From the IMG/VR virus record IMGVR_UViG_3300025424_000296, positions 1 to 64,000 of that record: 64,000 bases of DNA. The stretch is one strand, 5' to 3'. Below are positions 7,089 to 26,909 of this stretch, piece after piece. Source of the stretch: a virus. The position numbers were made by a program, and so were the translations under genes. Positions within the stretch are counted from its first letter, which is position 1, and each line of letters starts with the position of its first letter. Below the pieces are notes generated by a model. That model saw only the letters and a list, made by a program, of their open reading frames with translations, was not told where the DNA came from and did no database searches.

Positions 7089-7448
7089 TCATTTTTTATT
7101 TTTCTTTAGCCAAATTCTATAGCTACCAACACCTCCTCTGCTGTCAACAATGGGTTCTACACGCCGTATGCAACGTATTTGTTTGCACCAATCTTGGAAT
7201 TCATGAGCAATTTGTCCACTTTTACCTGTTATGATTACCACATGTTCAGTTTGTGCTTCATTATGATCGGCTACAAAGTCATTGACTTTACCATGTGCTT
7301 CGCTAACAGTCATGCCGTGTAGGTCTAGTCTACGTTTAAGGGCTTGTGGTTCTTTCATGGGTATTATGGTTTCTTGTGGACTGTTAAATACTCTATCAAT
7401 ATAGAGATTCCAATCTCGTTGATCCTGTTCTCGTAATGGCTCAAACAT
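7089..7448 (-). CDS. Stand-alone Smr/MutS2-domain protein
   Basis: LDLHGMT...A and VIITGK motifs; C-terminal GG.GS...L. Confidence 0.85.
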   Translation of the reverse strand: MFEPLREQDQRDWNLYIDRVFNSPQETIIPMKEPQALKRRLDLHGMTVSEAHGKVNDFVADHNEAQTEHVVIITGKSGQIAHEFQDWCKQIRCIRRVEPIVDSRGGVGSYRIWLKKNKK

Positions 7449-7555
7449 TTTGGTTTCTTTCTTTAGCAACTTCTACATTTTAACTAATTTTTATTAGTTT
7501 GCGAATCTTTTTTAAGAAATTAATAACCATGAATAAATACCTACATATTTGGAGC

Positions 7556-8512
7556 ATGGCTATGAAAATGAAATTAGAAGACTATATAGAAAAATATGGA
7601 GAATAATCTGGTACTCGGCGATTTTATGGTATGCAAAAATTATTAAAGACCAGACAAAAAACATATGAATCTCATCCATATAAACGACTGACTAAGGAAT
7701 GGTTTATATGGCGATATCCGGGGGATGGGTTACAACGTTTCAACGACCATGTTAACAAATCGAGACAATCCGAAGAAAATATGATTAAAAGATACGGAGA
7801 AAAGTTAGGCAAGAAAAAATGGGAAGAAACTGTACAAAAGAAAAATACCTTATCTATATTAAAAGCTAAAGGAGGTGAAAAGGCGTTATTAGAATGGAAA
7901 GAAAAACGTAATAAAGGATATGATGCTTATTGGGATAAGTTGTCGGAACAAGAAAGACAACAAGTTATAAAGAACCGAACCAAAAAATCTAAAGTAACAA
8001 AAAGGCAAAGATATGGTAATAAGAAAAAAATTGAAATTTTTAAAGAAAAATACGGCGAAGATGGTTCAGTCGAATATGCGAAATATTTACAAACTATTTT
8101 TAAATCAATTGGATATTCAAAAGAATGTGAAAAATTTATAAAAGATTTGATTAATAGCTATCCAATTTTACAACAGTATACATTATTCTATAGAGATCAA
8201 AATAATAATAAGGTTGAGTGGTTTTTAACAGACGGTAACAACATATTTTTCTATGATTTATGCATAAAAGAACGTATGATATTAGTAGAATATGACGGAA
8301 GCAAATGGCATCCCACTTATGATCAATATCTAAATAATCCTGATGATATTATGGAGATAATTGGAATGTCCGTAAAAGAAAAATTTGAAAAAGATCAAAA
8401 TAAAATTTTATTAGCTGAACAAAAAGGCTATACTATATTTGTAGTTAGATCAGATATGTCTAAAGATGAAATAAATCGAATTATATTAGACATCATACAT
8501 GAGGTTAGTTAA
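7556..8512 (+). mobile_element. Putative homing endonuclease (KYG repeats plus C-terminal Vsr/DUF559-like nuclease) with in-frame TAA at 7604-7606
   Basis: FYD...VEYDG..WH...D..K...A...GY motif; upstream in-frame segment MAMKMKLEDYIEKYGE* with GGAG RBS. Confidence 0.7.
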
Positions 8513-8984
8513 AATGGAAGAATGTTTTACTTCAACTAAAAGTTATTATAATTATCCGTGTGCTCACAGACAATACAGGCATGACGGAAATTGTGCTAAA
8601 ATACACGGATATTCGAGATCTTTTCACTTTGTGTTTGGTGCAAAAACTATGACTAAAGAAGGATTTGTAGTTGATTACGGTGATTTAGATGATCTTAAAG
8701 CTCACTTAGATTATATGTATGATCACACACTTGTTCTTGATGAATCTGACCCATTTATGGATATGTTTAAACAATTAGAAGTAGCAGGTGTTTGTGACAT
8801 TAGAACTCATCCATTGGGACCAGGTATGGAAGGTACAGCTCATTATCTATGTGAATGGGCAGATAACTGGTTACGAAATAAAACAAAAGGCCGTGCCTGG
8901 GTAATTACTGTAGAAGCAAGGGAAAACGATAAAAATAGTTCAATTTATCGAAATCCGGATGCTGGTTTCAAAGGTTGGATTTAA
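8499..8984 (+). CDS. queD: 6-carboxy-5,6,7,8-tetrahydropterin synthase (QueD/PTPS family)
   Basis: CAHRQ...C..IHGYS, VVDYG.L, DHT, V..RE..KN. Confidence 0.88.
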   Translation: MRLVKMEECFTSTKSYYNYPCAHRQYRHDGNCAKIHGYSRSFHFVFGAKTMTKEGFVVDYGDLDDLKAHLDYMYDHTLVLDESDPFMDMFKQLEVAGVCDIRTHPLGPGMEGTAHYLCEWADNWLRNKTKGRAWVITVEARENDKNSSIYRNPDAGFKGWI

Positions 8985-9019
8985 CCTTAAGTATCTTAAG
9001 TAATAACCATAGAGCTAAA

Positions 9020-9077
9020 GCTATACTCCGACTTGCAGCCTACTAGGCTAAATATTACTAACATATCGGAGTATAGC
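9020..9077 (+). promoter_or_regulatory. RBS-sequestering hairpin enclosing a late promoter
   Basis: GCTATACTCCGA (9020-9031) / TCGGAGTATAGC (9066-9077) flank TAAATA (9049-9054). Confidence 0.75.
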
Positions 9078-9078
9078 C

Positions 9079-10218
9079 ATGACAAATTATAAACCAAGTC
9101 CTACATATTATCATGTAACATGGAATCAGGGTTCCCCAACTGATTATACAGATCTAACAGGTACACAAGCCGGTGGGTTAGATAGTGTTTCACCAATAAA
9201 ATATAATGAAAAAGTCAGTATTACCGGTAATGCATCAAGTCCAACAACTACTGCCGGCGATACATTGTTAATAAATGGTTATACTATATTATTTGGTTCT
9301 AGTTCACTGGCAGACATATTAACCACAATCAATATGTCAACTGTGCTTACAAATGTTATTGCACACAATGCTGTTAGTTCTAATTATGTAACACTTACAA
9401 ATGCAGATGGTTATGAAGGTTTGATTATCGAACTAGCCGAAGGCAATGGTGCGTTAGCCAAGTTGGGATTTACAGCGGGTTCATATAATGCACTTCTTAA
9501 CGGTGTTGGTGGAGCATTTACCAACTTTACAAACGGTGATGTTGTTACCATTAATGGTGTTAATATAACAATGACAACGGGCGGTGGATTAAATGTTGCC
9601 GGTGCTGTTGCTACAATTAATTCATTTACATCACTTACTGGTGTAGTTGCTATAGCTGCTGCTGGTACAGTTCAACTATCTAGTGTAAATGGTCAACCAT
9701 TTGTTACTGCCGGCTCTGCTGCATCTAAACTAGGGTTCCCAGCTGGTGTATATGCTGGTTCTCCCGGCACACTAGATCAAAGCACATCGAAAACTCAAGC
9801 TAATCTACGTTGGCAGCAGGTAGTTAATCAACTAGAAGTTTTTTCAACTCCGTTTATGTTAGCTGATCAATTGGGAACAGGTAACTACAGTGGCGACGAT
9901 GAGCTTACTACATTTTCATTTACAGTTGGATATGAGCATCCAGATCAAATTTTCACAGTTGCATTAGCATCTGAACCAGATGCGGGTACAGTATTGACTG
10001 GAACTGCTGCTATCAAAAGAGCTGTAGCAAGAGGCTTGACTGCGTCTTATACAGGTAATACCAATCTATTTGATCCAACTGTTGAAGTACGTAACGGTTG
10101 TGCTATAAGACCAAATCCAGTAAGAACTGTTAGACTAACAGCAGACGGGTTTGATACTGTTGCTAATATTGCCACTGTTGAAGGTAATATTACAGTTAGC
10201 ATGATTTCATTAGATTAA
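9079..10218 (+). CDS. Probable virion structural protein with two flagellin-hook-IN-like repeats
   Basis: Thr/Gly-rich; repeated GD...ING..I...IN...V.A...KLGF.AG.Y; late promoter. Confidence 0.65.
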   Translation: MTNYKPSPTYYHVTWNQGSPTDYTDLTGTQAGGLDSVSPIKYNEKVSITGNASSPTTTAGDTLLINGYTILFGSSSLADILTTINMSTVLTNVIAHNAVSSNYVTLTNADGYEGLIIELAEGNGALAKLGFTAGSYNALLNGVGGAFTNFTNGDVVTINGVNITMTTGGGLNVAGAVATINSFTSLTGVVAIAAAGTVQLSSVNGQPFVTAGSAASKLGFPAGVYAGSPGTLDQSTSKTQANLRWQQVVNQLEVFSTPFMLADQLGTGNYSGDDELTTFSFTVGYEHPDQIFTVALASEPDAGTVLTGTAAIKRAVARGLTASYTGNTNLFDPTVEVRNGCAIRPNPVRTVRLTADGFDTVANIATVEGNITVSMISLD

Positions 10219-10240
10219 GATCATAGGAGGTAGCGGTTTT

Positions 10241-11410
10241 ATGTTATTAACAATACTGTTACTGCTTTCTGCTCTGTGTCTAAGTTCAATAGCTGGATTT
10301 TATAGTGTATTAGGTATGACTGCTATATTTGCTGCATCGTGGTGGCCAATTGTCATAATGACCGGTACATTAGAGTTTAGTAAAGTTATAGTAGCCAGTT
10401 GGCTATATAGAAATTGGGGTAAAACGCCACTATTTCTAAAATCTTATTTTACTGTTGCTGTGATAATATTAATGTTTATTACCAGTTTAGGTATATTTGG
10501 ATTCTTATCTAAGGCACATATAGATCAAATAGCAAGTACTAGCGATAACCCATTGTTTATCAAACAAATTGATCAGCAAATTGCAACAGAACAAGCTCAT
10601 ATCGATGATAATAGAAAAGTTATTGCACAGATGGATAGTGCTGTTAATAGCGTGTTAAGTCAAAGTGTTTCTGAAAGCGCACAACGAGCCAATAAGGGTA
10701 GCACTATGGCACGACAAGCTACCATATTGCGAGACAGCCAGAAAAAAGATCGAAACTCTCTTAATAAATCTATAGATGAGTTAAATGCAAAAATCAGGGA
10801 CCTCAACAAGGAACGATTGAAGTTAGAGCAAGATCAAATAAAGATCGAAGCAGAAGTTGGTCCAATTAAATATATTGCTCAAATGATATATGGCAATAAT
10901 CTGGATAAGTCTCTGCTTGAAAAAGCTGTACAATATGTAATAATCATGATTATCATGGTATTTGACCCGCTAGCGGTATTAATGATCATTGCTGCCAACA
11001 TGAGTATGCAACAACTAGCTGAAGATAAAAAAGCCAAGAAAATTGCGGAAAATGAGGATATCGAACTTAAAAAAAAAGTAGATGAACCGATTTTAAACCG
11101 CATTATAGAACCATTAGATACATCAAACACTGATTTTGCTTTTAACCTAATAGATGATACAATAGATCACGTAATAGAGGAATCAATAGAGTCAGTGTCA
11201 GACGATTCGATAGCAGAACCATACTCATTGGAAAGCAATGTCGACAATGACATAACTATTATAGAAGAACCTGTTCAGGAGTTATTGTATGGTAATGAAA
11301 CAGAAGCTCCTTATGTTCCCTCTGTTGTTAATAAACCAGATGATGTATTGCAAAATATAAAAAAATATCATAATGTTAGATTAGATGATGCAAGACGCAC
11401 ATTAAAATGA
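10241..11410 (+). CDS. Membrane protein with long coiled coil
   Basis: Three N-terminal TM helices, coiled coil, C-terminal TM with FDPLA motif, acidic tail. Confidence 0.75.
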   Translation: MLLTILLLLSALCLSSIAGFYSVLGMTAIFAASWWPIVIMTGTLEFSKVIVASWLYRNWGKTPLFLKSYFTVAVIILMFITSLGIFGFLSKAHIDQIASTSDNPLFIKQIDQQIATEQAHIDDNRKVIAQMDSAVNSVLSQSVSESAQRANKGSTMARQATILRDSQKKDRNSLNKSIDELNAKIRDLNKERLKLEQDQIKIEAEVGPIKYIAQMIYGNNLDKSLLEKAVQYVIIMIIMVFDPLAVLMIIAANMSMQQLAEDKKAKKIAENEDIELKKKVDEPILNRIIEPLDTSNTDFAFNLIDDTIDHVIEESIESVSDDSIAEPYSLESNVDNDITIIEEPVQELLYGNETEAPYVPSVVNKPDDVLQNIKKYHNVRLDDARRTLK

Positions 11411-11434
11411 TCTTTAATTTGAATAGGACAAATT

Positions 11435-12694
11435 ATGGGAAGCGGTAAACAATTGCATACTTGTAACTTTTGCGGTAAAAATCAATTAGAAGTAGAAAAA
11501 TTAATATCTGGTAATGATGTATTCATTTGTAATGAATGTATCACACTATGCTATGACATTCTAGAAGATGATAACGAAGAAAAAAAGAAAAAATCCAAGA
11601 AAGATTTGATAAGTCCTGCTGCTATCAAGACATTTCTTGATGATCGTGTGATTGGACAAGATATTGCTAAACGCATGCTAAGTGTTGCCATTTATAATCA
11701 TTATAAAAGAGTCAATAACCCAGTAATAGATGGGGTTGAAATTGATAAAAGTAACATGCTATTCATTGGTAGTAGCGGTGTTGGTAAAACATACATAGTA
11801 CAAAACATTGCCAAGATACTTGATGTACCATTTGTTATTGTTGATGCTACCAGTTTAACTGAAAGTGGATATGTGGGTCTCGATGTAGAGGAAGCTATCA
11901 CCAGACTTTATCAATCAGCTAATCAGGATATTGAAAAGACTCAGCGTGGTATTGTATACATTGATGAAATTGATAAGAAAGCTCGTAAAAGTGAAAGCAG
12001 TAGCATAACACGCGATGTTAGCGGTGAGGGCGTACAGCAAGCACTACTCAAAATGATGGAAGGTTGCGAAGTCAAAGTTCCCCCTCAGGGCGGACGTAAA
12101 AATCCACACGGTGAGTTTATTCTAGTAGACACTAAAAATATCTTGTTCATTGTCGGCGGGGCATTTGTTGGCTTATCAAAAGCCATTGCCAAACGACTCG
12201 ACAAGGATAATACAGGAATAGGATTTGGTGCCAAATTCTCATCCAATGATGAGGAAGAAAAGAATAGTATTGAATATCTTAAAAAGGTAGACAGTGACGA
12301 CTTAACCAGTTTTGGATTGATACCTGAAATGATCGGACGTTTACCAATTATTGTTCCTTTTGCAGATTTGGAAGAAGACGATTTGGTTAAAATTCTTCTT
12401 GAACCAAAAAATGCCATAATTAAACAGTATCAAAAAATGTTTAAATTGGACAATGTTACATTGGAGTTCGAACCTGAATCATTGAATGCTGTTGCTAAAT
12501 TAGCAATCAAAAGAAAAACAGGTGCCAGAGGATTGAGAAGTATTCTGGAATCAATATTATTACCTATACAGTTTGACTTACCAACTTATTCAGCTAATAA
12601 TATAGAGAAGATCGTTATTACAGACGAGTTTATAAACGGAGGTAAAGAGCCATTGTTAGTATATCGTACAGCAACCAAGGAACAGACTACATGA
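11435..12694 (+). CDS. clpX: ATP-dependent Clp protease ATPase subunit ClpX
   Basis: C4 zinc finger, Walker [13 protein letters not shown] pore loop, [22 protein letters not shown] loop, GARGLR. Confidence 0.97.
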
Positions 12695-13251
12695 AACCTG
12701 GGGTGAAATTTGATAGAAGAGCAAATTCAGAACCAGAATATATTGTAAACAACTGGATACGTAGCTCTAGTGTTAGATTAATCGATGAAACTGGAACAAA
12801 TGTAGGAGTTGTCGATACTAAACAAGCATTAAATCAAGCAAGAGATCTTGGATTAGATTTAATAACAATTGCCAAAGATGCCGAACCTCCTGTTTGTAAA
12901 ATATACGAACTTAGTAAGTACATTTATGAGCAAAAAAAGGTCAAGAAAGAGCTTGATAAAAAGAACAGAGAAAATGCTATTATTGTCAAGGAAATACAGA
13001 TTAGACCTCATATCACCGAGCATGATCTACTGATAAAACAAAAACATGCCAAAGAATTTTTAGAAGAAAATCACAAGGTAAGAATTGTGATGAAATTCAG
13101 AGGACGAGAAATTGCTTTTGCTAAAAAAGGCTTTGAACTTGTCACCAAGTTTATAGATGGATTAGGGGAGCATAAGGTTGAAAAAGATCCTAGTCTAGCC
13201 GGTAACACTATATTAGCTATACTTGCACCGTTGGCTAGACAATCGAAATAA
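12691..13251 (+). CDS. infC: Translation initiation factor IF-3
   Basis: VRLID..G.N.G...A...A...GLDL...PPVCKI, KEIQIRP.I..HD, FRGRE. Confidence 0.95.
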
Positions 13252-13311
13252 ATTAATTTGCTTTAATATAAGCTTTTACTTACAATTAGGTATCAACAGG
13301 GAAATATAAAG

Positions 13312-13617
13312 ATGTTTGATAAAAATGATGATCCGTTTCACGGTAAACGAGGTGTAAGCGTTAAAGTATTCAATAACAACATTAATGGTGCTATTGCACA
13401 GTTAAAGCGTAAAAGCAATGCAGAGGGTATCAATCGAGAGTTGCGTAAGCGCAAGCATTTTGAACCAAATACCATGAAACGTCGTCGTAAACTAGCAGAA
13501 GCTCAATTACGTTGGCGTAAGAAGCAAGATCAAATTAATGAAGTTGTAAAACCAAAAAAGAAAACTGCTACACCACCTTCTCAGGCACCTCGCCGAGAAG
13601 TTGAAACCAACTCATAA
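13312..13617 (+). CDS. rpsU: Ribosomal protein bS21 with N- and C-terminal extensions
   Basis: V.V.NNNI..A...LKRK...EGI.RELR.R.HFE....KRRRK. Confidence 0.88.
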   Translation: MFDKNDDPFHGKRGVSVKVFNNNINGAIAQLKRKSNAEGINRELRKRKHFEPNTMKRRRKLAEAQLRWRKKQDQINEVVKPKKKTATPPSQAPRREVETNS

Positions 13618-13628
13618 GAAGACACCCG

Positions 13629-14054
13629 ATGAAAAAACAAACCGCTATTACAGCAGGATTATTATTAGTCCTGCTTGGAGGTTGTGTACATTCAAACACA
13701 GATTTTGTATCAACATTTGAAGAAAATGAGATCAGAACGCCGCAGCCTGTTATGGGGGAACATTACTTTGACGCAGCACTTGATACATTAGAAAAATCAT
13801 GTGATCAAGGAAAATCAGAGAAATTACAAGCAGCTGATTCGGTCATGAAAAAAATTGTTGAATTGGGTTTAGATAATCACGGTCACAAACTAAAAGATGC
13901 AAATCCAGAATTGATCAGAGCTGGTAATACCTTATACAAATTAACCATGGAATTTTATAATAACAACACAGATCCAGCGTATTGCAGAACACAAGTTAAT
14001 GTTATAGGTCGTTATTTAGATCTTGTACATCCTAATTTTAGTTCTAAAAATTAA
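13629..14054 (+). CDS. Putative lipoprotein
   Basis: MKK-hydrophobic-LGGC lipobox. Confidence 0.65.
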   Translation: MKKQTAITAGLLLVLLGGCVHSNTDFVSTFEENEIRTPQPVMGEHYFDAALDTLEKSCDQGKSEKLQAADSVMKKIVELGLDNHGHKLKDANPELIRAGNTLYKLTMEFYNNNTDPAYCRTQVNVIGRYLDLVHPNFSSKN

Positions 14055-14099
14055 TGTAGTGAGTCTTGACTATCCTATCGAGAGTAAATATATTATCAG

Positions 14100-14162
14100 T
14101 GTAGATGCTCATGTGAGGTCTACAATGTAATAACATACTTCGCTTTAATAGGAGGTAATATC
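14100..14162 (+). promoter_or_regulatory. ROSE-like RNA thermometer leader of the sHsp gene
   Basis: 5' hairpin TGTAGA...TCTACA; 3' hairpin TACTTC-G-CT-TTAAT-AG-GAGGTA with bulged G opposite the SD. Confidence 0.65.
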
Positions 14163-14639
14163 ATGCGTAGTTTAAATGTAACCGCCTCAACTCTCGAGGA
14201 CCTTTTCCAAGACCTTAATCGTGTAGCTATTGGCTTTGAGCCAACTATTCGAAGATTACACGATGTACAAAATGCATTTTCGTCTAATCCCAACGGATAC
14301 CCGCCGTATGATTTAGAAATGGTAGAAGATGATCATTATAGAATCACATTAGCAGTAGCAGGCTTCTCATTAGATGATTTGGATATCGAAACAGCTAATA
14401 ATCAATTGACTATTACCGGTGAGATCAAAAACAAAGATGAGGATAGACAATATCTATTTAAGAGTATTGCAACTAGATCATTTAAACGAGTGTTTCACCT
14501 AGCTGATCATGTTAGAATTGAATCTGCTGATCTTGCTGACGGATTATTAACTGTTGACTTGATCAGAGAAGTTCCAGAAGCACTAAAGCCTAGGAAAATT
14601 GCAATCTCGAGTCAAAAAGTCATTGATGCTAAACTCTAA
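14163..14639 (+). CDS. ibpA: Small heat shock protein (IbpA/Hsp20)
   Basis: YPPYDLE, YRITLAVAGF, IATRSF.R.F.LADH, GLL.V.L.REVPE..KPRKI.I. Confidence 0.95.
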   Translation: MRSLNVTASTLEDLFQDLNRVAIGFEPTIRRLHDVQNAFSSNPNGYPPYDLEMVEDDHYRITLAVAGFSLDDLDIETANNQLTITGEIKNKDEDRQYLFKSIATRSFKRVFHLADHVRIESADLADGLLTVDLIREVPEALKPRKIAISSQKVIDAKL

Positions 14640-14691: not shown

Positions 14692-14742
14692 ATGCTTGAC
14701 AACAACTCAGTGTTGTTTATAATTGTTCTAATAGCGGAGAAC

Positions 14743-15066
14743 ATGATTATGAGCAAAATGCAAACCAAAGACGATGCTTCAACGCAAGTATTAGAAAAGG
14801 TAGTTGTACAACCTCCGAGAAAGTGGAACGTAGTTCTATATAATGATAATGTTACCACTATGGAATTTGTAATATTGGTATTGATGCAGATCTTCCACAA
14901 AAGTTTTGAAACTGCTAGTGATATTATGATAAACATTCACGAAAATGGTAAAGGTATTGCAGGTACTTACTCTAATGAAGTGGCAACACAAAAGCGAGAC
15001 GAAACTGTATCTGCTGCCAAATCAAATGGCTTCCCACTTAAATGTGAACTTGAACCTGCTGAATAA
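14743..15066 (+). CDS. clpS: N-end rule adaptor ClpS
   Basis: VVLYNDNVTTMEFV..VL...F...A..IM..IH..GKG.AG.Y..EVA..K...FPL; GGAG RBS before 14743. Confidence 0.93.
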   Translation: MIMSKMQTKDDASTQVLEKVVVQPPRKWNVVLYNDNVTTMEFVILVLMQIFHKSFETASDIMINIHENGKGIAGTYSNEVATQKRDETVSAAKSNGFPLKCELEPAE

Positions 15067-15401: not shown

Positions 15402-15464
15402 TAAGTTGTTGATTTTGAATTGGTAAAAATACCGGTTGACAGCCATTATTTTGATAGTAAAGTT
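15402..15464 (+). promoter_or_regulatory. IHF-consensus site plus sigma70-like promoter
   Basis: Inverted AATCAACAACTTA (15402-15414); GGTTGACA with -35 at 15436. Confidence 0.55.
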
Positions 15465-15516
15465 ATATTGCAACAAACGGACAATGGTGTCCCAAACGTA
15501 CAAAAGGAGTAGTTGC

Positions 15517-15849
15517 ATGTCAGATCGTACTTTCAATATCGCTGGTTTTTCATCACTTTCCGGCCAGCGCAAGGTTCGCTTTGCCAATGGCACTGTTGAG
15601 GCCCGTGCAAAGATTCTAGAGCGTAATGGTCATGTTGACATTGACCTACGTGAGCTTCCTCGTGCAATGTCCAAGTCAGAAGCTATGGCGTTCCTTGAGG
15701 TTACTGCTGAGGACGTTCGTGCTCCTAAGGGTGTGCAGGCTGCTGCTGCTAAGGCTCGCAAGGGTGTTAAGGTTGCAGAAGTTATTGCAATTGCCAAGGA
15801 TGCTGGTAAGGCTCGTGCTAAAGAAGCTGCTGAGGAAATTGCAGCTTAA
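15517..15849 (+). CDS. Basic early protein with Ala/Lys-rich tail; paralog of 23745..24239
   Basis: AGGAG RBS; F.IAG.S...KVRFA...R.K.LE.NGH...L.ELP.AM.K..A.AFL shared with paralog. Confidence 0.8.
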   Translation: MSDRTFNIAGFSSLSGQRKVRFANGTVEARAKILERNGHVDIDLRELPRAMSKSEAMAFLEVTAEDVRAPKGVQAAAAKARKGVKVAEVIAIAKDAGKARAKEAAEEIAA

Positions 15850-15952
15850 TTTAAATTAGATTAATGGGGGACAGTTAGTCCCCCACTCTTTTATCATAAT
15901 TCGAAATTTGCATATGATATCATAAGACTGCTTAATTATGTAGAGCAGAATT

Positions 15953-16388: not shown

Positions 16389-18254
16389 ATGACACGTACT
16401 ATCGGAATAGATCTTGGAACTACTAATAGCTGTGTAGCCATCATGGAAGGCGGCAAGGCAAAAGTAATCGAAAATGCAGAAGGCGCACGTACAACACCAA
16501 GTGTTGTAGCATGGACTGATCAGGAACAACTGGTCGGACAGCCTGCAAAGCGTCAAGCAATAACCAATCCAGAAAATACAGTATTTGAAGCTAAACGTTT
16601 AATTGGGCGTAGATTTGACGATCCAACTGTTAAGAAAGACATGAAGAGTTTATCATATCATGTGGTAAAAGCCGACAACGGCGATGCATGGGTAGACATC
16701 AAGGGCAAGAAATATAGCCCACAGGAAATTTCAGCACAAGTCTTACAAAAGATGAAGAAAACTGCTGAAGACTATCTTGGGTCACCTGTGACCAAAGCAG
16801 TTATCACAGTACCTGCATACTTTTCAGATTCTCAGCGTCAAGCAACCAAGGATGCTGGCAAGATTGCTGGATTAGAAGTCCTACGTATTATCAACGAGCC
16901 AACTGCGGCTGCTATGGCATTTGCTGTAGACAAGGGTGGTTCTGGTAAAGTTGTAGTAGTCGACGCTGGTGGTGGCACTCACGACGTTTCGGTGTTAGAT
17001 ATCGGTGACGGTGTCATCGAAGTGTTATCCACTAACGGTGATACACACCTTGGCGGTGCTGACTTTGACGAAGTTGTATTCCATTATCTAGTAGATGCAT
17101 TTAAAAAAGAAAACGGAATAGATCTTACCACAGATAAGATGGCAGTACAGCGTCTAAAAGAAGCTGCTGAAAAGGCCAAGATTGAACTTTCAAGTGCAAC
17201 TGAAACTGACATCAATTTACCATATATTACAGCAGATAGTTCTGGGCCAAAGCATCTTGTTACCAAACTAACTCGTGCTAAGTTTGACAGCCTTACAGAA
17301 GATCTTGTTAAACGCATCATTGCTCCGTGTAAGCGAGCTCTTAAGGATGCTAACCTAAAAGTTAGTGATATCAAAGAAGTGTTGTTAGTAGGTGGTACCA
17401 CTCGTATTCCTGCTGTTAAGACAGCTATTAAAGAGTACTTTGGTAAGGAGCCAAATAACTCTGTTAATCCAGACGAAGCAGTTGCTATTGGTGCTGCAAT
17501 TCAGGGAGGTGTTCTAGCCGGCGATGTCAAGGACGTGGTACTACTAGACGTTACACCATTAAGCCTTGGTATCGAAACATTGGGTGGTGTGTTTACTAGA
17601 CTAATTGATCGCAACACTACTATTCCTAGCAAAAAGAGCCAAGTGTTCTCTACTGCTGAAGACAATCAACCTGCTGTTACTATCCGTGTGTTCCAGGGTG
17701 AACGCGAAATGGCCAACGACAATAAGTTGTTGGGTCAGTTCAATTTGGAAGGTATTGCTCCGGCACGTCGTGGTATGCCTCAGATCGAAGTTACATTTGA
17801 TATTGATGCTAACGGCATTGTTAATGTCAGTGCTACCGACAAGGGAACTGGTAAGGAACAGAAGATTTCTATCCAGGCTAATGGCGGACTTGACGACAAG
17901 GATATCGAGCGTATGATCCGAGAAGCTGAAGAAAATGCTGAAGCTGACAAGAAAAAGCGTGAAATTGTGGATGCCCGTAACGGTGCTGATGCAATGATAG
18001 CCAGAGTTGAAAAAACCCTCGAAGAGGACGGTGATAAGATTGATGCAACTCTTAAAGCAGAGGTTGAGCAAGCTATTACTGATCTTAAAGCAGTTATGGA
18101 TAGCGAAGACGCAGAAGTTATACGTAATAATACCAATGCATTGGCTCAGGCTAGTATGAAAATTGGCGAAATCATGTATAAAGAAGCACAAGCCAACGCT
18201 GCTAAACCTGATGATGATGACATCATTGACGGAACAGCTGAAGAAGTAGCATAA
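16389..18254 (+). CDS. dnaK: Hsp70 chaperone DnaK
   Basis: [47 protein letters not shown]; full length. Confidence 0.98.
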
Positions 18255-19784: not shown

Positions 19785-19821
19785 ATTGTATATGGTTTCA
19801 ATTATATTGTATGCTTGCGAC

Positions 19822-20007
19822 ATGAAAAAGCCTGTTAATCATGAAATGGTCAAGATAGACGAGGTACTAAAGGTACTCGATGATTTCAGAGTGGATATCA
19901 AGCAAACTTATAAATCTTCAGATCTTATTGATCAAATAGAACGCAAGATATTAACATTAGAGACCAAACGACGATTAGTTGTTATAGACGGTGGCAAGAA
20001 CAAGTAA
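19822..20007 (+). CDS. Hypothetical protein ending LVVIDGGK
   Basis: ORF track; C-terminal L.VI.GGK motif is common in alphaproteobacterial proteins. Confidence 0.55.
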   Translation: MKKPVNHEMVKIDEVLKVLDDFRVDIKQTYKSSDLIDQIERKILTLETKRRLVVIDGGKNK

Positions 20008-20017
20008 AGGACAAAAA

Positions 20018-20467
20018 ATGAACCCAATAATCAGAATGGATCTACCTCATGGAATGGTATTAATAGAGTGTTTTCCAAATTTAGCTCCAACACACGTAGC
20101 ACAAATTATTAAAATATCAAATGACGGTGCATATGATGGGGTACCATTTCATAGAGTTATCGATGGCTTTATGGCACAAGGCGGAGCTACTATGAAAGGC
20201 TATCCGCAGCTTCAAGCTGAATTTAATGATGCTCCGCACGTAGAAGGCATGTGTAGTATGGCTAGAACCCCTGATCCAAACAGTGCAAGTGATCAGTTCT
20301 TTATTTGCATAGCTAATGCACAATTTCTAGATAGACAATACACAGTATGGGGTCGAGTGATGTATGGAATTGAACATGTCCACGCAATTGCCAAGGGTGA
20401 ACCACCTGCAAATCCAACACCAATTGTCAAAATGCGATCAGTTGATCCTACAAGCATTGGAGCATAA
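20018..20467 (+). CDS. Cyclophilin-type peptidyl-prolyl isomerase
   Basis: AP.HV, YDG..FHRVIDGFMAQGG, SMAR..DPNSA..QFFI, LD.QYTVWG.V. Confidence 0.95.
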   Translation: MNPIIRMDLPHGMVLIECFPNLAPTHVAQIIKISNDGAYDGVPFHRVIDGFMAQGGATMKGYPQLQAEFNDAPHVEGMCSMARTPDPNSASDQFFICIANAQFLDRQYTVWGRVMYGIEHVHAIAKGEPPANPTPIVKMRSVDPTSIGA

Positions 20468-20469
20468 TT

Positions 20470-20724
20470 GTGGATGTTCTCGATTTTACAATGCTGGAAA
20501 ATCAACTGAGTCATAGCAAAGTTAAGATTGAGTTTATCAAAGTCGATGGTACATATCGAGTTATGATATGTACCAAATCTCCAGTAATAATTACGTCCGC
20601 AAATATGCCAGCTAATACCACAAACGCAGTGAACCAATCAATACTTAAGGTTTTTGATTTGGAAAAACAAGCTTGGAGAAGTATGCGCAAAGATCGTATA
20701 ACACAATGGGAACTATATGAATAG
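20470..20724 (+). CDS. WYL_2/SH3-like beta-barrel protein
   Basis: F.K.DGT.R.M.CT...VFDLEKQAWRS. Confidence 0.75.
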   Translation: MDVLDFTMLENQLSHSKVKIEFIKVDGTYRVMICTKSPVIITSANMPANTTNAVNQSILKVFDLEKQAWRSMRKDRITQWELYE

Positions 20725-21451: not shown

Positions 21452-21492
21452 TTAATTAAGCGTTTGAAATTATTAGGCTAATTTATTTAAAA

Positions 21493-22275
21493 TTAGCCTA
21501 TTTGTTTCATTTCTGGTTGGTTACCAATTTGCTTAACTGAATCTTGCTCTGGCCAAGCATAGATATATTTGCCCATCATGTCCTGGACAACTAAGAATCT
21601 AATTCCAGATGCAGTGTAGCTGATAGTATCTGCAGTATATCCCTGCATGGTAGAACCGTAATCCATTTTAGCACGATCAACTTCTTCGCCGTTGGTCTTT
21701 AACCATTTGGCCACGGCATCAACTTCTCTGTTACTATTTGGACCTTGTCCACCTAGGTTAGCAATGACCGTAATATCTTCGATTGGAGTAGTAGTATATG
21801 GTTTGAATGTTTCCCTACCAAGCACACGAATCTGCTTGCTCATATAACCTGGAAGATTCTTAACTTGATGCCAGTCTGGGTTGACAGTTGACTGATCACC
21901 TACTTCGCTGCCAACAGTTGTCATTGCTTTGCTAATAAGCGCAGGAACTGTATCTGCTGCAACTGGTGTTGCACTTGCTGCGGGTAAATCTGGCTCTGCT
22001 GCTAATGCTGCATCAGGTATGTTCAAACTTCCTAATTTTTGAGCAGCATCTGGACTCATGTTTACCTTGCTCATGGCTTTTTTGGTAGCAGGTGCAGAAG
22101 CTTGTTTGAGTTTTGGTAATTCAGCTTTGTTATCCGGCTTTCCCACACTTGACTGTGATTTTGCAGTGGTTAATTCGCCCTTTGAAGTGGGTTCATCAAA
22201 CATTGTATCCCAATCTATATCAGTTGGGTCTGTTGTTTTTGTTGGTTTTGCTTCGGTGATCTCGTGTATTTTCAT
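21493..22275 (-). CDS. Hypothetical late protein, MKIHEITEA N-terminus
   Basis: TAAATA 8 nt upstream of ATG 22275; low-complexity N-half and folded C-half. Confidence 0.7.
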   Translation of the reverse strand: MKIHEITEAKPTKTTDPTDIDWDTMFDEPTSKGELTTAKSQSSVGKPDNKAELPKLKQASAPATKKAMSKVNMSPDAAQKLGSLNIPDAALAAEPDLPAASATPVAADTVPALISKAMTTVGSEVGDQSTVNPDWHQVKNLPGYMSKQIRVLGRETFKPYTTTPIEDITVIANLGGQGPNSNREVDAVAKWLKTNGEEVDRAKMDYGSTMQGYTADTISYTASGIRFLVVQDMMGKYIYAWPEQDSVKQIGNQPEMKQIG

Positions 22276-22332
22276 AGTGATATTATTTATTTGAAAACTG
22301 TGATGTAGCAAAAATGCAACACTCTAATTTCT

Positions 22333-22362
22333 GGTTGACAGCTGATTAAAAGACGTTATAGT
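22333..22362 (+). promoter_or_regulatory. Early sigma70-like promoter
   Basis: GGTTGACA-N16-TATAGT. Confidence 0.7.
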
Positions 22363-22392
22363 GTCACTATGACCAATAGGAGACCTCCAAAA

Positions 22393-22521
22393 ATGGCTAA
22401 AATCAATCCAGTTGCGAAAGCATTGGCTAGCGGTTCATGCCGTCCACAGGTTGTAAAAGCTCGCAAAGGTAAAGGCTCATATTCCCGTCGAGAACGATAC
22501 AGGCCGCTCGGGCGATACTGA
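22393..22521 (+). CDS. arfA: ArfA-like alternative ribosome rescue factor (42 aa, not in ORF track)
   Basis: MAKINPVAKALASGSCRPQVVKARKGKGSYSRRERYRPLGRY contains the ArfA signature N...AL.....R..V.K..KGKGSY.R; AGGAG RBS; TGATG coupling. Confidence 0.7.
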   Translation: MAKINPVAKALASGSCRPQVVKARKGKGSYSRRERYRPLGRY

Positions 22522-22979
22522 TGTTAGCTAATCGAGATAAACGTATCATGCAATTTATTAGGCGTCAAGCAATTGACGTTGAAAAGGTTAGTAATGCTCG
22601 TGTCGCTGCGGGTATTGCTATTAAAGGACAGTTGATCTCAACTGGCAAAAACAGCCGACGAACTCACCCCTTCCAGAAACAATTTAGTAAGAACGATCAT
22701 GCAATATTTTTTCATGCTGAAACTTGCGCTATTAGCAATAGCCTTAACCATATCCATAAAGACGATCTAAGACGTGCTACCTTGTTTATACATCGTGTTA
22801 AAATACCACTGCGATACAGTACAGAATGGGTAGATGGATTAGCTAAACCTTGTAATGGTTGCATGGCTGCTGTTGCTGCATTTAATATTCGCAGAGTTGT
22901 GTATAGTACAGATGTAAACCACAAATATGTGATATTAGAACGTAATAGTAAATGGTCTTGTGACGAGATAGGAGTATAA
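22521..22979 (+). CDS. Zn-dependent cytidine/adenosine deaminase superfamily protein
   Basis: HAE and PCxxC motifs. Confidence 0.85.
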   Translation: MLANRDKRIMQFIRRQAIDVEKVSNARVAAGIAIKGQLISTGKNSRRTHPFQKQFSKNDHAIFFHAETCAISNSLNHIHKDDLRRATLFIHRVKIPLRYSTEWVDGLAKPCNGCMAAVAAFNIRRVVYSTDVNHKYVILERNSKWSCDEIGV

Positions 22980-22980
22980 A

Positions 22981-23262
22981 ATGAAAGATCTAATAGCAAC
23001 TGTACGTGAGTATTCAAACAAAATCATAAACGATAGAGAACCTGTAGACATATTCGAAGCTCTACGCGACGAGGTAGAAGAGCTTGATGCAGAAATGTAC
23101 GGATATAGCCAAGGTGAAGATGGTATAGCAGGTGAAGCAATTGATGTTATTAATTGTGCGTTGGATTTGATCTTCAAAGCCAATCCAGAATGGACCAATG
23201 ATGATATCGTAGCATATGCTGAAAAGAAATGCCAGAAATGGTTAGAGAAAAATAGTGGTTGA
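22981..23262 (+). CDS. MazG-like NTP pyrophosphohydrolase
   Basis: DEVEEL...GEAIDVI..ALD (ExxE...ExxD). Confidence 0.75.
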   Translation: MKDLIATVREYSNKIINDREPVDIFEALRDEVEELDAEMYGYSQGEDGIAGEAIDVINCALDLIFKANPEWTNDDIVAYAEKKCQKWLEKNSG

Positions 23263-23287
23263 CATACAGTAGTCAGATGCTACTGTA

Positions 23288-23380
23288 ATACAAACAACGG
23301 ACAACTGGACGCAGGCCCTGCGAAGTGAGATAGGGAGGTAGCTGCCCGAAGGCATGGAGGGTGTCCGTTGGTTTGTGTAT
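23288..23380 (+). ncRNA. Candidate structured small RNA or 5' leader
   Basis: Starts right after TTGACA-N16-TACTGT promoter; 16-bp closing helix with one bulge; internal hairpins CGCAG/CTGCG and TGCC-CGAA-GGCA; GC-rich. Confidence 0.5.
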
Positions 23381-23396
23381 AAACAAGGAGTGAGAC

Positions 23397-23612
23397 GTGA
23401 AAAATGCAGTCCACTTTGTTGGTTTCAGAGGCAACGAATATGTAAACGCAGTTCGAGTTTTTGGTAAACCGGACTTTGTACATCGCTCCTGGGATATCCG
23501 CGCCCAGCAAGAAGTTGACCAAAATGATAGGGTTATTTTCGCTCGTACCCGAGATTTAGAGCGTATACAGACGCCAAAAAGCCAGGCTTTTGACGATTCT
23601 GCGGTAATGTAA
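23397..23612 (+). CDS. Hypothetical protein (VHFVGFRG.EY..A.RVFG.PDFVH..WD)
   Basis: AAGGAG RBS, GTG start. Confidence 0.75.
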   Translation: MKNAVHFVGFRGNEYVNAVRVFGKPDFVHRSWDIRAQQEVDQNDRVIFARTRDLERIQTPKSQAFDDSAVM

Positions 23613-23638
23613 ACAAACTTTTTTCCTTGATTTAGTAA

Positions 23639-23705
23639 AATCAACGACTTATAAGCACCAAAATGTTTAGATTTTGGTTGACGGGACAGCTAATGGTGCT
23701 ATTGT
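23639..23705 (+). promoter_or_regulatory. IHF-consensus site plus early promoter
   Basis: AATCAACGACTTA (23639-23651); TTGACG-N13-TGC-TATTGT. Confidence 0.65.
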
Positions 23706-23744
23706 ATGTGTATAAGCAGTTAAACACAAACAAGGAGTAAACAA

Positions 23745-24239
23745 ATGGATAAGGTTTTTGCAGTTGCCGGCATTAGCAAAATGGACGGCGTTTACAAGGT
23801 TCGCTTTGCTAAAGACATGAGTCGTGTTAAGGTTCTCGAGAAGAACGGGCACACGTATGTGCGCTTGATAGAACTTCCCGAGGCTATGGACAAGGCTGCT
23901 GCTGTTGCATTCCTTAAGGCTCATAAGAGCTTCCAGGATACGGTAGCACAGGATACACTTGCTGGTGAAGGTAAGGCAGCTCCGGCTCCAAAAGTCAAGG
24001 CAGCTAAACCAAATATTGCTCAACCAACTTTTGTTCCTAAGGCCGAAGTTGCTAAGACTCCTGCGGAAATCGAGCGCATCAAAGCCAAGAACTTGGCTAC
24101 ACTGCGTAAGGTTGGCAAGAGCTGGCAGGAAGTCCGTGATACAGAAGGTGAGCAAATGCTTGTTGAAGCCATGGAACATATTGATGCTCTTAGCGAAGCT
24201 GGTGTTCCTAACTACCGTTGGGCTCGAATTGATGACTAA
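23745..24239 (+). CDS. Basic early protein, paralog of 15517..15849
   Basis: AAGGAG RBS; shared N-domain; Ala/Lys/Pro-rich linker; hairpin terminator follows. Confidence 0.8.
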   Translation: MDKVFAVAGISKMDGVYKVRFAKDMSRVKVLEKNGHTYVRLIELPEAMDKAAAVAFLKAHKSFQDTVAQDTLAGEGKAAPAPKVKAAKPNIAQPTFVPKAEVAKTPAEIERIKAKNLATLRKVGKSWQEVRDTEGEQMLVEAMEHIDALSEAGVPNYRWARIDD

Positions 24240-24338
24240 TAGAGAGGGGCCAAGTCCCCTCTCAACTTTTTGGTTGACAAGTTACAAATACATGCTACTA
24301 TATCCATACAACATCAATTAGCAACAAAGGACCACGTT

Positions 24339-24479
24339 ATGAAAACGTTTAAAGTTAAGATCCGTGTTAGTAACGCCGGCTCTACACAAACAACCACTGT
24401 GAATGCTGACAACTATCAAAATGCTAAACATATGGCTGAGATGTTATACGGTAAGTCAAATGTGATTATGGTCTGGTAG
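24339..24479 (+). CDS. Small hypothetical protein
   Basis: Own early promoter (24274-24301), AAGGA RBS; similar pattern to 25248..25406. Confidence 0.65.
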   Translation: MKTFKVKIRVSNAGSTQTTTVNADNYQNAKHMAEMLYGKSNVIMVW

Positions 24480-24492
24480 AAAGCATATTAAC

Positions 24493-25227
24493 ATGATACC
24501 TAAAATTGTACACATCTGCTGGGATGATAAAAACGTTCTTAATCATCAATCACCTATGATTTTAAATGGATTGAAAAATTTATCATTGCTCAATCCAGAT
24601 TGGAAAATACAAATACATAGTGATCAAGACGTAGATGATTATATAAAAAACATGTTAAGCCCTGTTGATTACAGTTTATATACTAATACTCATATCGTTG
24701 AAAAATGCGATATTTGGAGACTGTTTAAACTGTATAATGAAGGAGGCTTATATATTGATATAGATCGCTTTTGCAATGTAAGTTTTGATGATATACTAAC
24801 TCCGGACATTAAATGGGTACTACCTACTTGTAATGATTATGATTTTTCTCATGATTTTATGATGAGTAGTCCGGGTAATCCAGTTTTTGCTAGTACTATC
24901 AATCTTATTTTAGAACGCAGGAGAGCAGGACATACAAATGTTTATTTTCTAGGACCTCAAACATATATGCATGCTATAACAATTCTATTAACTGGAGAAA
25001 TAATCAACACTAACCCGGGACAAGCAAAATTTGCAGAACTTAGAAACATTATATCAAAATTTGAATTTATTTTGACTTATAAAGAAAATGAACCATATGA
25101 TACAATAATCTACAAACATGACCCTGAATACTTTAAACAGGGAAATAGTATAGAAACAGATTTTGAAAAAATAAAACAAGAATTTTATAGGTCGTACAAT
25201 GTAAAACATTGGACAGGGGAATGGTGA
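24493..25227 (+). CDS. GT32 (DxD, OCH1-like) glycosyltransferase
   Basis: MIPKIVH..W, LNPDW, DIWR...LY..GGLYIDID. Confidence 0.88.
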   Translation: MIPKIVHICWDDKNVLNHQSPMILNGLKNLSLLNPDWKIQIHSDQDVDDYIKNMLSPVDYSLYTNTHIVEKCDIWRLFKLYNEGGLYIDIDRFCNVSFDDILTPDIKWVLPTCNDYDFSHDFMMSSPGNPVFASTINLILERRRAGHTNVYFLGPQTYMHAITILLTGEIINTNPGQAKFAELRNIISKFEFILTYKENEPYDTIIYKHDPEYFKQGNSIETDFEKIKQEFYRSYNVKHWTGEW

Positions 25228-25247
25228 TTACAGAAAAAGGAAATGCT

Positions 25248-25406
25248 ATGATAATTGAGAGATACAAGTTCTCTGTTTGGATTAATTCAATCGGACAGAG
25301 CTTTGATGTTATTATTCACAGTGACAGTTATTATCATGCTGAGATACAGGCAAAAGCACAGTACCCAAACGCTTATAAAATTATTTCATGTGGACGAGTA
25401 TTTTAA
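25248..25406 (+). CDS. Small hypothetical protein
   Basis: AAGGA RBS; D.Y..A...A.AQY pattern. Confidence 0.55.
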   Translation: MIIERYKFSVWINSIGQSFDVIIHSDSYYHAEIQAKAQYPNAYKIISCGRVF

Positions 25407-25413
25407 TAAAAGG

Positions 25414-25438
25414 TTGAAAGGGGCTGAGCCCCTTTCAA
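25414..25438. terminator. Bidirectional terminator
   Basis: TTGAAAGGGGC-TGA-GCCCCTTTCAA between convergent ORFs. Confidence 0.75.
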
Positions 25439-25439
25439 A

Positions 25440-25625
25440 TCAAGCAACAAGGGTTTCTTCTTCTAGCGCCGCAATTTGATCGCGAATAGCCAGTTTTTTC
25501 TTTTTGAGTTTGTGCAAATATGCAAACTCGTCATCAGTCATTAATTCTGCTTTACGTTTTTGGAGACTTGATATTTCTAGATCTATTTCGCGATGTTTAT
25601 TAATAAGATGATCTAAATTTGTCAT
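25440..25625 (-). CDS. YdcH/DUF465-like coiled-coil protein
   Basis: L..KH..ID..I..L...L..LKKKKL.IRDQI. Confidence 0.75.
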   Translation of the reverse strand: MTNLDHLINKHREIDLEISSLQKRKAELMTDDEFAYLHKLKKKKLAIRDQIAALEEETLVA

Positions 25626-25696
25626 GTTATCCTCCTTTATACCAGCTCTGATGAGCTAGTATAATGTTAATAATTCATGTCATAGTTTGCAAGAGT

Positions 25697-26587
25697 CTAG
25701 TCTGCTTTGTGAGTCATTTTTGGAATTGGAGTATCGTTTAGTTCTCGTTTATTCTTATACAATACTCTGTTACCTAATATTTCAATCCATAATTTAGTCT
25801 TTGGACTATTTAACGCCCAAAAGTTGAACGATAGGTTAGATTGAACTGGGCGTATAAACATAGTATCTTCGCTGGGTATCAACATGATCTGACTAGTGGT
25901 GCGCATCTTCTTTCTATCATCGGCAGTACGCAAGCAATTCAATTGTGGATTGTCTATATAAGTTCCAGCTAAACCGTCTATCATGTCATCTGCTGATTTG
26001 GCACGATCAACCACATACTCAGCTATCTTCTTACGACTTTCGGAACTAAGACGACTCATGATTTGATTTTCGTTCTCTGGATCTTTTTGATATCCAGCCC
26101 AGTCCAACCACACGCCGTGATTGGTTCTTACTATGGTTTCATCTCGAGGAATTTCTCTGATTTTATAAGTATATTTTCTATCAGCATATCCGCCCGGCTC
26201 CCAGCAACCTTCTAATAGATAACAAGTGTCTTTGTCAAATATCAGTGTATTACCGGGTAACTTTGATTTAATCAAATACATGGCAGCCGCTTTGACATTT
26301 GGATAACGCAAAGCTCGCTTTAGTTTAGCACCATCTTTGCTGGGTGTTTTACTACGTACTGTTATTTCTTTTTCGTCGTCTTTGACCATGAGGCTTGCAC
26401 TTATTATGCACACACCGCCGCTGTTTAATCCCTCACAGTACTGTGTAACATCATCCCAGAACATGAGAATCTCTACACCATTACTGGTAGTACTTTTAAA
26501 ACTGATTTCTGGAACATAGTTTCGATCTCTATTTTTTACTCCGATCCACCCAATATTATCAAAATATTTTGCTGAAATTATACACAT
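25697..26587 (-). CDS. N-terminal nucleophile (Cys2) hydrolase-like protein
   Basis: MC start, KNRD, EGLN..G, RTNH motifs. Confidence 0.7.
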   Translation of the reverse strand: MCIISAKYFDNIGWIGVKNRDRNYVPEISFKSTTSNGVEILMFWDDVTQYCEGLNSGGVCIISASLMVKDDEKEITVRSKTPSKDGAKLKRALRYPNVKAAAMYLIKSKLPGNTLIFDKDTCYLLEGCWEPGGYADRKYTYKIREIPRDETIVRTNHGVWLDWAGYQKDPENENQIMSRLSSESRKKIAEYVVDRAKSADDMIDGLAGTYIDNPQLNCLRTADDRKKMRTTSQIMLIPSEDTMFIRPVQSNLSFNFWALNSPKTKLWIEILGNRVLYKNKRELNDTPIPKMTHKAD

Positions 26588-26705
26588 TTAATAAACCTCT
26601 GCGATTAGATATTTATGCAACCTTTTGAGTGAGTTATGTTATTGGATATATCACCACATACTGCTATTAAATACACTAGTTGACCAACTCTGATAAGGAG
26701 GTTCC

Positions 26706-26909
26706 GTGGTAAAAGTATATCAACAAGACACATATAATTATTACCCAGATGAACCCTCCGCTTCATATAGAGAAGGTTTACGAGCATATAGAAGTTGGTT
26801 AAATTCCGGCAATCGACGCCCAGAAAATCCCTACTGGTTTGGATTAGATGAAAGCAGAGATTATCTCGAATGGGAACGCGGTTGGCTAGATGGTAGCTTT
26901 GAAATCTAA
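26706..26909 (+). CDS. Ribosome modulation factor (RMF)-like protein
   Basis: Y.EG..A....G....NPY.......W..GW..G matches the RMF-fold signature; GGAGG RBS; TAAATA upstream. Confidence 0.5.
   Translation: MVKVYQQDTYNYYPDEPSASYREGLRAYRSWLNSGNRRPENPYWFGLDESRDYLEWERGWLDGSFEI

Follow-up and report, generated by a model that had tools for sequence, protein, structure and literature searches.

Phages with genomes above 200 kb are known to carry parts of a translation and proteostasis apparatus. IF3, S21, RRF, release factors and transfer-messenger RNA (tmRNA) have been described in huge phages (PMC7162821), and a part for phage IF3 and bS21 in redirecting initiation is already published (PMC7162821, PMC7824862). 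The adjacency of clpX and IF3 and the roles of S21 and IF3 are discussed in PMC11242549, the Clp set of phage Atu_ph07 is described in PMC6102473, and a phage-borne ArfA is known as gp30 of pelagiphage HTVC027P (PMC12753301). In bacteria, the proteobacterial SmrB clade of Smr nucleases is defined by the motif DxH, a loop of the form GxG and, at the N-terminus, a '--xxxa' helix (EDQALF) that hooks uS2, whereas SmrA is without DxH; on the stalled E. coli ribosome the Smr domain contacts bS21, and several bacteria have the genes of the two proteins linked in an operon (Saito et al., bioRxiv 10.1101/2021.08.16.456513). The genes considered here lie at positions 7,089 to 26,909 of a 64,000-nucleotide window, the first 64 kb of the IMG/VR viral contig IMGVR_UViG_3300025424_000296 (113,210 bp). 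CheckV completeness of the contig is 28%, which at this length implies a full genome of about 400 kb. As in the huge-phage sets, for which redirection of the host ribosome has been proposed, IF3, bS21, chaperones and rescue components occur together (PMC7162821; PMC7824862); the difference is that Smr and ArfA, found in neither of these accounts (0 occurrences in PMC7824862), here stand beside the known genes.

Our results favour, with a probability of roughly 65%, a reading of this region as an accessory block typical of the lineage of Atu_ph07-like megaphages, its modules running in parallel and acquired separately rather than forming one co-evolved pathway. A sequence-only reading of the stretch had named ten genes, nine of which are real and pass curated thresholds: Smr, ClpX, IF3, bS21, Hsp20/IbpA, ClpS, DnaK, cyclophilin and an ArfA-like peptide. 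Its description of these genes as dispersed is inaccurate, since all but the tenth, an RMF-like open reading frame (ORF), fall within 15.4 kb, and relatives preserve the order of six of them as one collinear block. In the window this core, Smr ... ClpX-IF3-bS21 ... Hsp20-ClpS, is packed into 8 kb (7.1–15.1 kb), and the same order of Smr ... ClpX-IF3 ... S21 ... Hsp20 ... ClpS is found in Agrobacterium phage Atu_ph07 and the Sinorhizobium phages Phosso and AP-J-162. The core is a collinear block inherited in the Atu_ph07-like lineage. With positions in kb taken from annotations and whole-record hidden Markov model (HMM) searches, Smr, ClpX, IF3, S21, Hsp20 and ClpS lie respectively at 371.9, 381.0, 382.6, 389.8, 397.0 and 398.1 in Phosso (PV764938), at 10.0, 1.9, 0.3, 489.1, 487.3 and 486.3 in the circular Atu_ph07 (MF403008), and at 186.2, 178.1, 176.4, 169.1, 159.5 and 158.5 in G001, a complete IMG/VR genome of 480 kb. 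A further complete IMG/VR genome, G002 (608 kb), has Smr at 538.0, ClpX at 512.2, S21 at 510.8 and ClpS at 502.0, with IF3 and Hsp20 absent; in G003, which is 67% complete, Smr, S21, Hsp20 and ClpS are present and ClpX and IF3 were not found. The relative position of Hsp20 is shared by Atu_ph07, Phosso, G001 and G003, ClpS is present in all five large relatives, and ClpX-IF3 adjacency recurs in Atu_ph07, Phosso and G001. The divergent QueD-like neighbour of Smr is paired with it again in Phosso and G001. Identity between the window proteins and those of the group of Atu_ph07, Phosso and AP-J-162 is 54–55% for ClpX, 42–44% for ClpS, 38–39% for IF3 and 29–37% for Smr.

Compared with these cultured phages, the window has a G+C content of 36% (34–41% across the stretch examined) and a contracted block, which takes up 8 kb where theirs spans about 27 kb. 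Inside the block it carries neither topoisomerase nor thymidine-kinase genes, the topoisomerase genes lying between Smr and ClpX in Atu_ph07 and Phosso, and it has DnaK, cyclophilin and ArfA-like genes added. Record searches found none of these three in Atu_ph07, Phosso or G001 to G003. The complete megaphage genomes that carry Smr and bS21 and have none of the three number four. In the other direction, Smr and S21 are not in six ArfA-bearing genomes, namely four that are CheckV-complete (158–183 kb) together with Caulobacter phage Cr30 and Erythrobacter phage vB_EliS-L02. The separate distribution of ArfA and Smr among complete genomes indicates that the rescue parts were inherited separately. 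The expectation that the genes co-occur as a unit is not borne out, as Smr and ArfA are independently distributed and IF3 is absent from the complete G002, an outcome named beforehand as one that would speak against it. DnaK, cyclophilin and the 42-residue ArfA would instead be additions of the sub-lineage to which the window belongs. A closer relative, the 9.9-kb IMG/VR fragment L035, carries adjoining cyclophilin and DnaK genes whose products are 65.5% and 68% identical to those of the window, and on it cyclophilin, DnaK, an ArfA-like gene (NPLFRQR...KGKGSY) and a homologue of a 296-residue window protein all fall within 5 kb. This homologue (L035:477-1445) is a 72% identical copy that adjoins cyclophilin and DnaK. 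The 296-residue protein itself begins MC(I/V)(I/V)SAKYF, matches no family and is possibly a hydrolase with a Cys N-terminal nucleophile. A megablast of the block against the phage collection returned no match and thus no near-identical record. The coordinates of all features are collected below.

Features of the window discussed in the text, with supporting matches and sequence landmarks
Feature	Position	Strand	Support and remarks
Smr-domain protein, stand-alone, SmrB-like architecture, 119 residues	7089-7448	-	PF01713; start ATG 7448; TTG at 7469 upstream also open
QueD/6-pyruvoyl-tetrahydropterin-synthase-like protein, divergent neighbour of Smr	8499-8984	+	PF01242 69 bits
Membrane/coiled-coil protein, 389 residues	10241-11410	+	just upstream of ClpX
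ClpX unfoldase	11435-12694	+	NF003745 575.6 bits against 359; zf-C4_ClpX, AAA_2
IF3	12691-13251	+	TIGR00168 152.1 bits against 60; IF3_N 89.7 bits, IF3_C 88.9 bits
bS21, basic/proline C-terminal tail	13312-13617	+	PF01165 48.4 bits; TIGR00030 43.8 bits against 28.95
Lipoprotein-like ORF, 141 residues, inside the block	13629-14054	+	no Pfam match; signal/lipobox-like N-terminus in translation
Hsp20/IbpA-type small heat-shock protein	14163-14639	+	PF00011 74 bits
Perfect sigma-70-type promoter match, TTGACA-16-TATAAT	14696-14723	+	12/12; ahead of ClpS
ClpS, N-degron adaptor	14743-15066	+	PF02617 99.8 bits; GGAGAA ahead of ATG 14743
Ala/Lys-rich ORF	15436-15849	+	no family match
Terminator-like hairpin, 8 pairs (6 G-C) then T-run	15865-15885	+	closes the ClpS unit
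DnaK (Hsp70)	16389-18254	+	PF00012 886.9 bits
Cyclophilin-type peptidyl-prolyl isomerase	19991-20467	+	PF00160 116.3 bits
WYL_2 (Sm-like SH3 barrel) protein, 84 residues	20470-20724	+	
Sigma-70-type promoter match, TTGACA-16-TATAGT	22335-22362	+	11/12; ahead of the ArfA-like gene
ArfA-like peptide, 42 residues, own stop	22393-22521	+	PF03889 28.4 bits against 25.5; AGGAG ribosome-binding site; ATG 22393
Deaminase-fold protein, 152 residues	22521-22979	+	PF00383 38 bits; PF14437 (MafB19-deam) 28.5 bits
Ala/Lys-rich ORF	23745-24239	+	no family match
296-residue protein	25697-26587	-	no family match
Acidic two-helix protein, 67 residues	26706-26909	+	AAGGAGG six bases before GTG start; no family match
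5-aminolevulinate synthase	27626-28867	-	TIGR01821 547 bits against cut-off 338

The Smr protein opens the block. It scores 46.8 bits against the Pfam domain (gathering score 25.7) and 47.6 bits in a six-frame search, and in a MAFFT alignment its DLH motif (LDLHG) aligns to D99-L-H101 of E. coli SmrB and is invariant in eight of eight sequences. At the position of the E. coli hook, EDQALF, the window Smr has QDQRDW, which by alignment retains one acidic residue and an aromatic at the right spacing with Q at the first acidic position. The corresponding motifs are TERKLW in Phosso and RDFELW in G002, and the full motif is present in Atu_ph07 (EELELW) and G001 (EEKKLW); it is missing from the sub-clade of G003 to G005, in which Smr consists of the 80–83-residue domain only. 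The likeness to E. coli SmrB takes in a stand-alone Smr domain, DxH in the form DLH, an N-terminal extension with a helix that can be aligned, and a genomic association with bS21. The differences are a linker of about 25 residues rather than about 80, the replacement of GHG by GKSG, and a BLASTP identity of 31% over 42 residues. Being stand-alone, with DxH kept and an N-terminal helix that can be aligned to the hook, the phage Smr looks SmrB-like rather than MutS2-like. NCBIfam gives the MutS2 C-terminus at 2.8e-7, SmrA at 3.6e-6 and SmrB at E=0.11, and the SmrB equivalog NF003432 is not reached (12.3 of the 128 bits required); none of these scores comes near its cut-off, and they give no basis for choosing between the three. 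Among 50,697 phage records Smr matched only those of Phosso and Atu_ph07, the latter annotating its own Smr (9907-10236) as hypothetical, and orthologues are found too in IMG/VR megaphages. bS21 accompanies Smr in six of six large records, a co-occurrence that is suggestive only, because the six records are related. A literature search found no paper mentioning both SmrB and jumbo phages, and the SmrB-type hook motif in a phage Smr, together with the Smr-bS21 co-occurrence in a phage clade, may be modestly new.

The ArfA-like gene, which the sequence-only reading had named without coordinates, was pinpointed by a scan for the KGKGSY motif. Its match to PF03889 spans only profile positions 24–43 of 44 (27.0 bits in a six-frame search). 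A large protein collection calls the identical 42-residue protein, with relatives of 36–51 residues that all belong to PF03889. KGKGS and a following R are invariant in eight sequences including E. coli ArfA, and the isoelectric point (pI) of the peptide is 11.4. In ArfA the basic KGKGSYxRK segment occupies the vacant mRNA channel, and contact with RF2 is made by the N-terminal part. As a whole the peptide aligns to residues 12–45 of E. coli ArfA, its residues 3–24 pairing with ArfA 12–33 at low identity. It thus resembles E. coli ArfA in the KGKGSYxR core, in the segment that precedes it and in being very basic, and differs in having no counterpart to the first 11 residues, no hydrophobic tail and a coupling to a deaminase-fold gene, the ATG of which overlaps its TGA stop (TGATG, read directly). 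In E. coli ArfA the hydrophobic tail goes with RNase III- and tmRNA-dependent control. No sign of synthesis from a truncated non-stop mRNA was found here, as the 42 codons are followed by a TGA belonging to the ORF itself and the tail is missing in the alignment. Like HTVC027P gp30 (PMC12753301) the peptide is phage-borne and matches PF03889, and ArfA-like genes are present on at least 43 IMG/VR viral contigs as well as in Cr30 and vB_EliS-L02. The coupled deaminase-fold protein carries an HAE...PCxxC motif and has no NCBIfam assignment. Given that a tRNA-Thr of the contig has an A34 (AGU) anticodon, the substrate of this protein could be A34 of tRNA rather than a nucleotide; its MafB19-deam family in Pfam also matches TadA.

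The central pair of the core is ClpX and IF3. ClpX is 54% identical to its E. coli counterpart and keeps the Zn finger, the Walker motifs, the GYVG pore loop and the IGF loop that docks ClpP. The RKH loops of ClpX assist recognition of the ssrA tag. In all three phage ClpX proteins compared (that of the window, L002:15984-17243 and L003:807-2066) the RKH of E. coli reads RKN, a change found throughout the lineage, so that substrate choice may differ. The ClpX stop and the IF3 ATG (12691) overlap as ATGA, read directly from the sequence, from which the two genes are predicted to be translationally coupled. In bacterial infC a non-canonical AUU start serves autoregulation. The phage IF3 begins at ATG, with the consequence that it would be free of this AUU-based autoregulation. 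A tblastn search with IF3 matched 102 phage records, mainly of jumbo phages and best in Phosso and Atu_ph07, and a single-protein IF3 scan of IMG/VR gave no relatives. With bS21 the tblastn search of the 50,697 phage records gave no match, S21 in the relatives being detectable only by HMM search. Neither ClpP nor tmRNA was found in the 113 kb of the contig, which is about 28% of the genome. The membrane/coiled-coil protein encoded just upstream of ClpX has 42–43% identical homologues on three small viral contigs with no other relation to each other (L056:537-1313, L060:3253-4053 and L061:2606-3403), where they recur 0.8–1.6 kb upstream of an ArfA-like gene.

The tenth named gene does not encode an RMF. 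The 67-residue ORF is probably a real gene, and an exhaustive phmmer search places it in a small, mostly viral family of homologues of 55–73 residues with the consensus AYxEGYxAYxSW...RPxNPY...WxxGWxDASFD. The family resembles RMF (PF04957) in size, in a two-helix hairpin and in a loose motif order, [RE]GYxA ... [CN]PY ... WxxGWx[ED]A. The RMF HMM (gathering score 27.9) has no match at E<=1 either to the protein or anywhere on the contig and touches two of nine relatives of the ORF, at E>=0.096, and hhalign of the family against 14 true RMFs returns a probability of 13.5%. AlphaFold2 run on the family alignment predicts a plain helical hairpin with a predicted local distance difference test score (pLDDT) of 80.5. 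With this model Foldseek ranks RMF 2jrm second (E 3.8, template-modelling score 0.44–0.49) and VIA-align ranks RMF 4v8g_AV fifteenth at Z 3.7 behind a top hit to QslA at Z 4.9, the RMF matches being below significance in both. From the single-sequence model (pLDDT 65.8) Foldseek returned nothing above noise, and searches of PDB sequences with the ORF and the family profile gave nothing useful. RMF, which is strongly basic, attaches to 16S rRNA close to the anti-Shine-Dalgarno region. The 14 true RMFs have a pI of 10.1–10.9 and a charge of +5 to +8, whereas the ORF has a pI of 4.6 and a net charge of -4, and with its eight relatives covers pI 4.1–4.8 and net charges of -4 to -9, an acidity incompatible with the rRNA binding of RMF. 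An RMF or hibernation role is ruled out, with charge as the deciding point; a distant common fold with RMF is possible. The ORF has viral clusters as its Atlas neighbours, and in one of them 11% of the members carry the RMF family. No match was obtained by tblastn with the ORF against the phage records, and the long proteins, of collagen-repeat or fibre type, that match it in 4–7 short stretches were taken as repeat or compositional matches rather than whole-protein homologues. PHROGs holds no family for the Smr, ArfA-like or 67-residue proteins, the last of which matches nothing in Pfam or NCBIfam either.

Sigma-70-type promoters lie ahead of ArfA, ClpS and Hsp20; sigma-70-like sites overall are not commoner than in shuffles (86 against 76.6 +/- 8.8). 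Strong terminator-like hairpins at 15865, 19761, 21474 and 24242, together with the consensus promoters of ClpS and ArfA, divide the region into a predicted four or more transcription units. Late promoters of T4 type, TATAAATA, are fewer than expected (7 against about 25), and owing to the scarcity of TATAAATA no temporal classification was made. The two Ala/Lys-rich ORFs are paralogous-looking, each with an N-terminal 'AG(F/I)S...G..KVRFA...R.K.LE(R/K)NGH' followed by the Ala/Lys-rich tail. The WYL_2 protein is encoded between cyclophilin and an FkbM-type methyltransferase. Further downstream, the 5-aminolevulinate synthase represents the C4 route to haem precursors typical of Alphaproteobacteria, in keeping with the cultured relatives, whose hosts are alphaproteobacterial.

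The sequence-only reading had proposed that these genes could form a single phage-run quality-control pathway in which Smr cuts the message, ArfA releases the ribosome, IF3 recycles the 30S subunit, ClpX degrades the product and the RMF-like protein hibernates ribosomes. The SmrB-like Smr and the ArfA core stand as parts of this proposal, and it draws further on the position of the named genes within 15 kb, on the shared presence of Smr and bS21 in every large record alongside the contacts and operon linkage reported for bacteria (Saito et al.), and on the recurrence of DnaK, cyclophilin and ArfA as neighbours on L035. The RMF arm, inheritance as a unit and a single transcription unit are not supported, given the independent occurrence of ArfA and Smr among complete genomes, the absence of IF3 from G002 and the separate promoters and terminators. 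Nor is the ClpX arm supported. ClpS is an adaptor of ClpA, not of ClpX, and ArfA-mediated release adds no degradation tag, hence creates no tagged substrate for ClpX. Taken together, this makes a unified pathway improbable. A shorter sequence of Smr cleavage followed by tag-free, RF2-dependent release by ArfA is conceivable, although co-inheritance does not support it. An unlikely alternative, but one with published precedent, is that Smr and ClpX serve DNA transactions, Smr as a nicking endonuclease of MutS2 or SmrA type and ClpX as a remodeller of replication or topoisomerase complexes. The best NCBIfam similarities of Smr are to MutS2 and SmrA, topoisomerase genes separate Smr from ClpX in Atu_ph07 and Phosso, and the authors of the Atu_ph07 and AP-J-162 reports proposed such a role (PMC6102473, PMC11242549). 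However, those similarity scores are below cut-off, the window retains Smr and ClpX-IF3 without topoisomerase genes, ClpX is apparently coupled to IF3 in translation, and Smr keeps the DxH that SmrA is without and a hook alignable to SmrB. For MutS2 itself the assigned role is now ribosome rescue (PMC10897456).

It is also quite improbable that the block functions mainly in counter-defence, keeping translation going against host abortive-infection nucleases that cleave tRNAs or mRNAs and leave ribosomes jammed, with Smr and ArfA clearing ribosomes and IF3 and bS21 replacing targeted host factors. Jumbo-phage IF3 and Pth2 have been framed in this way by Iyer et al. (PMC7824862), the ArfA-like ORF of Cr30 is flanked by two RNA-ligase genes, and the sigma-70-type promoters before ArfA, ClpS and Hsp20 fit early expression. 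The block nevertheless has no signature of defence or anti-defence genes and nothing ties its expression to host attack, and the idea overlaps the accessory-block reading, from which it differs only in selective pressure. The reading as a lineage-typical block of parallel modules agrees with published interpretations (PMC7162821, PMC7824862, PMC11242549, PMC6102473, PMC12753301). Two points weigh against it. As the contig is 28% of the genome, ClpP, ClpA, tmRNA or RRF encoded elsewhere may tie parts of the set together, and the fact that rescue, initiation and chaperone genes have stayed close together across deep divergence (IF3 at about 38% identity) could be due to selection for co-expression and not to inheritance alone.

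Our results suggest a model in which the phage would supply its own translation-initiation and proteostasis proteins through an accessory block of this kind, with activities and targets predicted from gene identities, motifs, synteny and distribution. IF3, starting at ATG and so outside AUU autoregulation, would load with bS21 onto host 30S subunits and make both initiation and the supply of subunits favour phage messages. ClpX with host ClpP, ClpS with a host or phage ClpA, and Hsp20, DnaK and the isomerase would manage folding and turnover of the proteome of a phage of about 400 kb. The SmrB-like nuclease may cut mRNA at collided ribosomes. The mini-ArfA, which its own stop codon and early-type promoter would allow to be made constitutively, may recruit host RF2 and free non-stop ribosomes without tagging. 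A bolder and doubtful extension, which we regard as a long shot, is that the SmrB-like nuclease and the phage bS21 form a matched pair, in which phage bS21 replaces host bS21 and is read by Smr at collisions so as to steer cleavage, while the mini-ArfA finishes without tagging and the acidic 67-residue protein serves as decoy to a basic factor that binds ribosomes.

Were the matched pair real, mRNA cleavage and rescue would be steered towards or away from phage-programmed ribosomes. Otherwise the block amounts to the accessory load to be expected in its lineage, with IF3, S21, the Clp genes and phage ArfA already published. The analysis raises the question of whether a phage SmrB-type nuclease, conserved from Atu_ph07 to uncultured megaphages and accompanied by bS21, acts on collided ribosomes, and Atu_ph07 is a culturable phage with a tractable host. 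It equally raises the question of whether the widespread phage ArfA peptides (36–57 residues) rescue ribosomes with host RF2, free of tmRNA-linked control.

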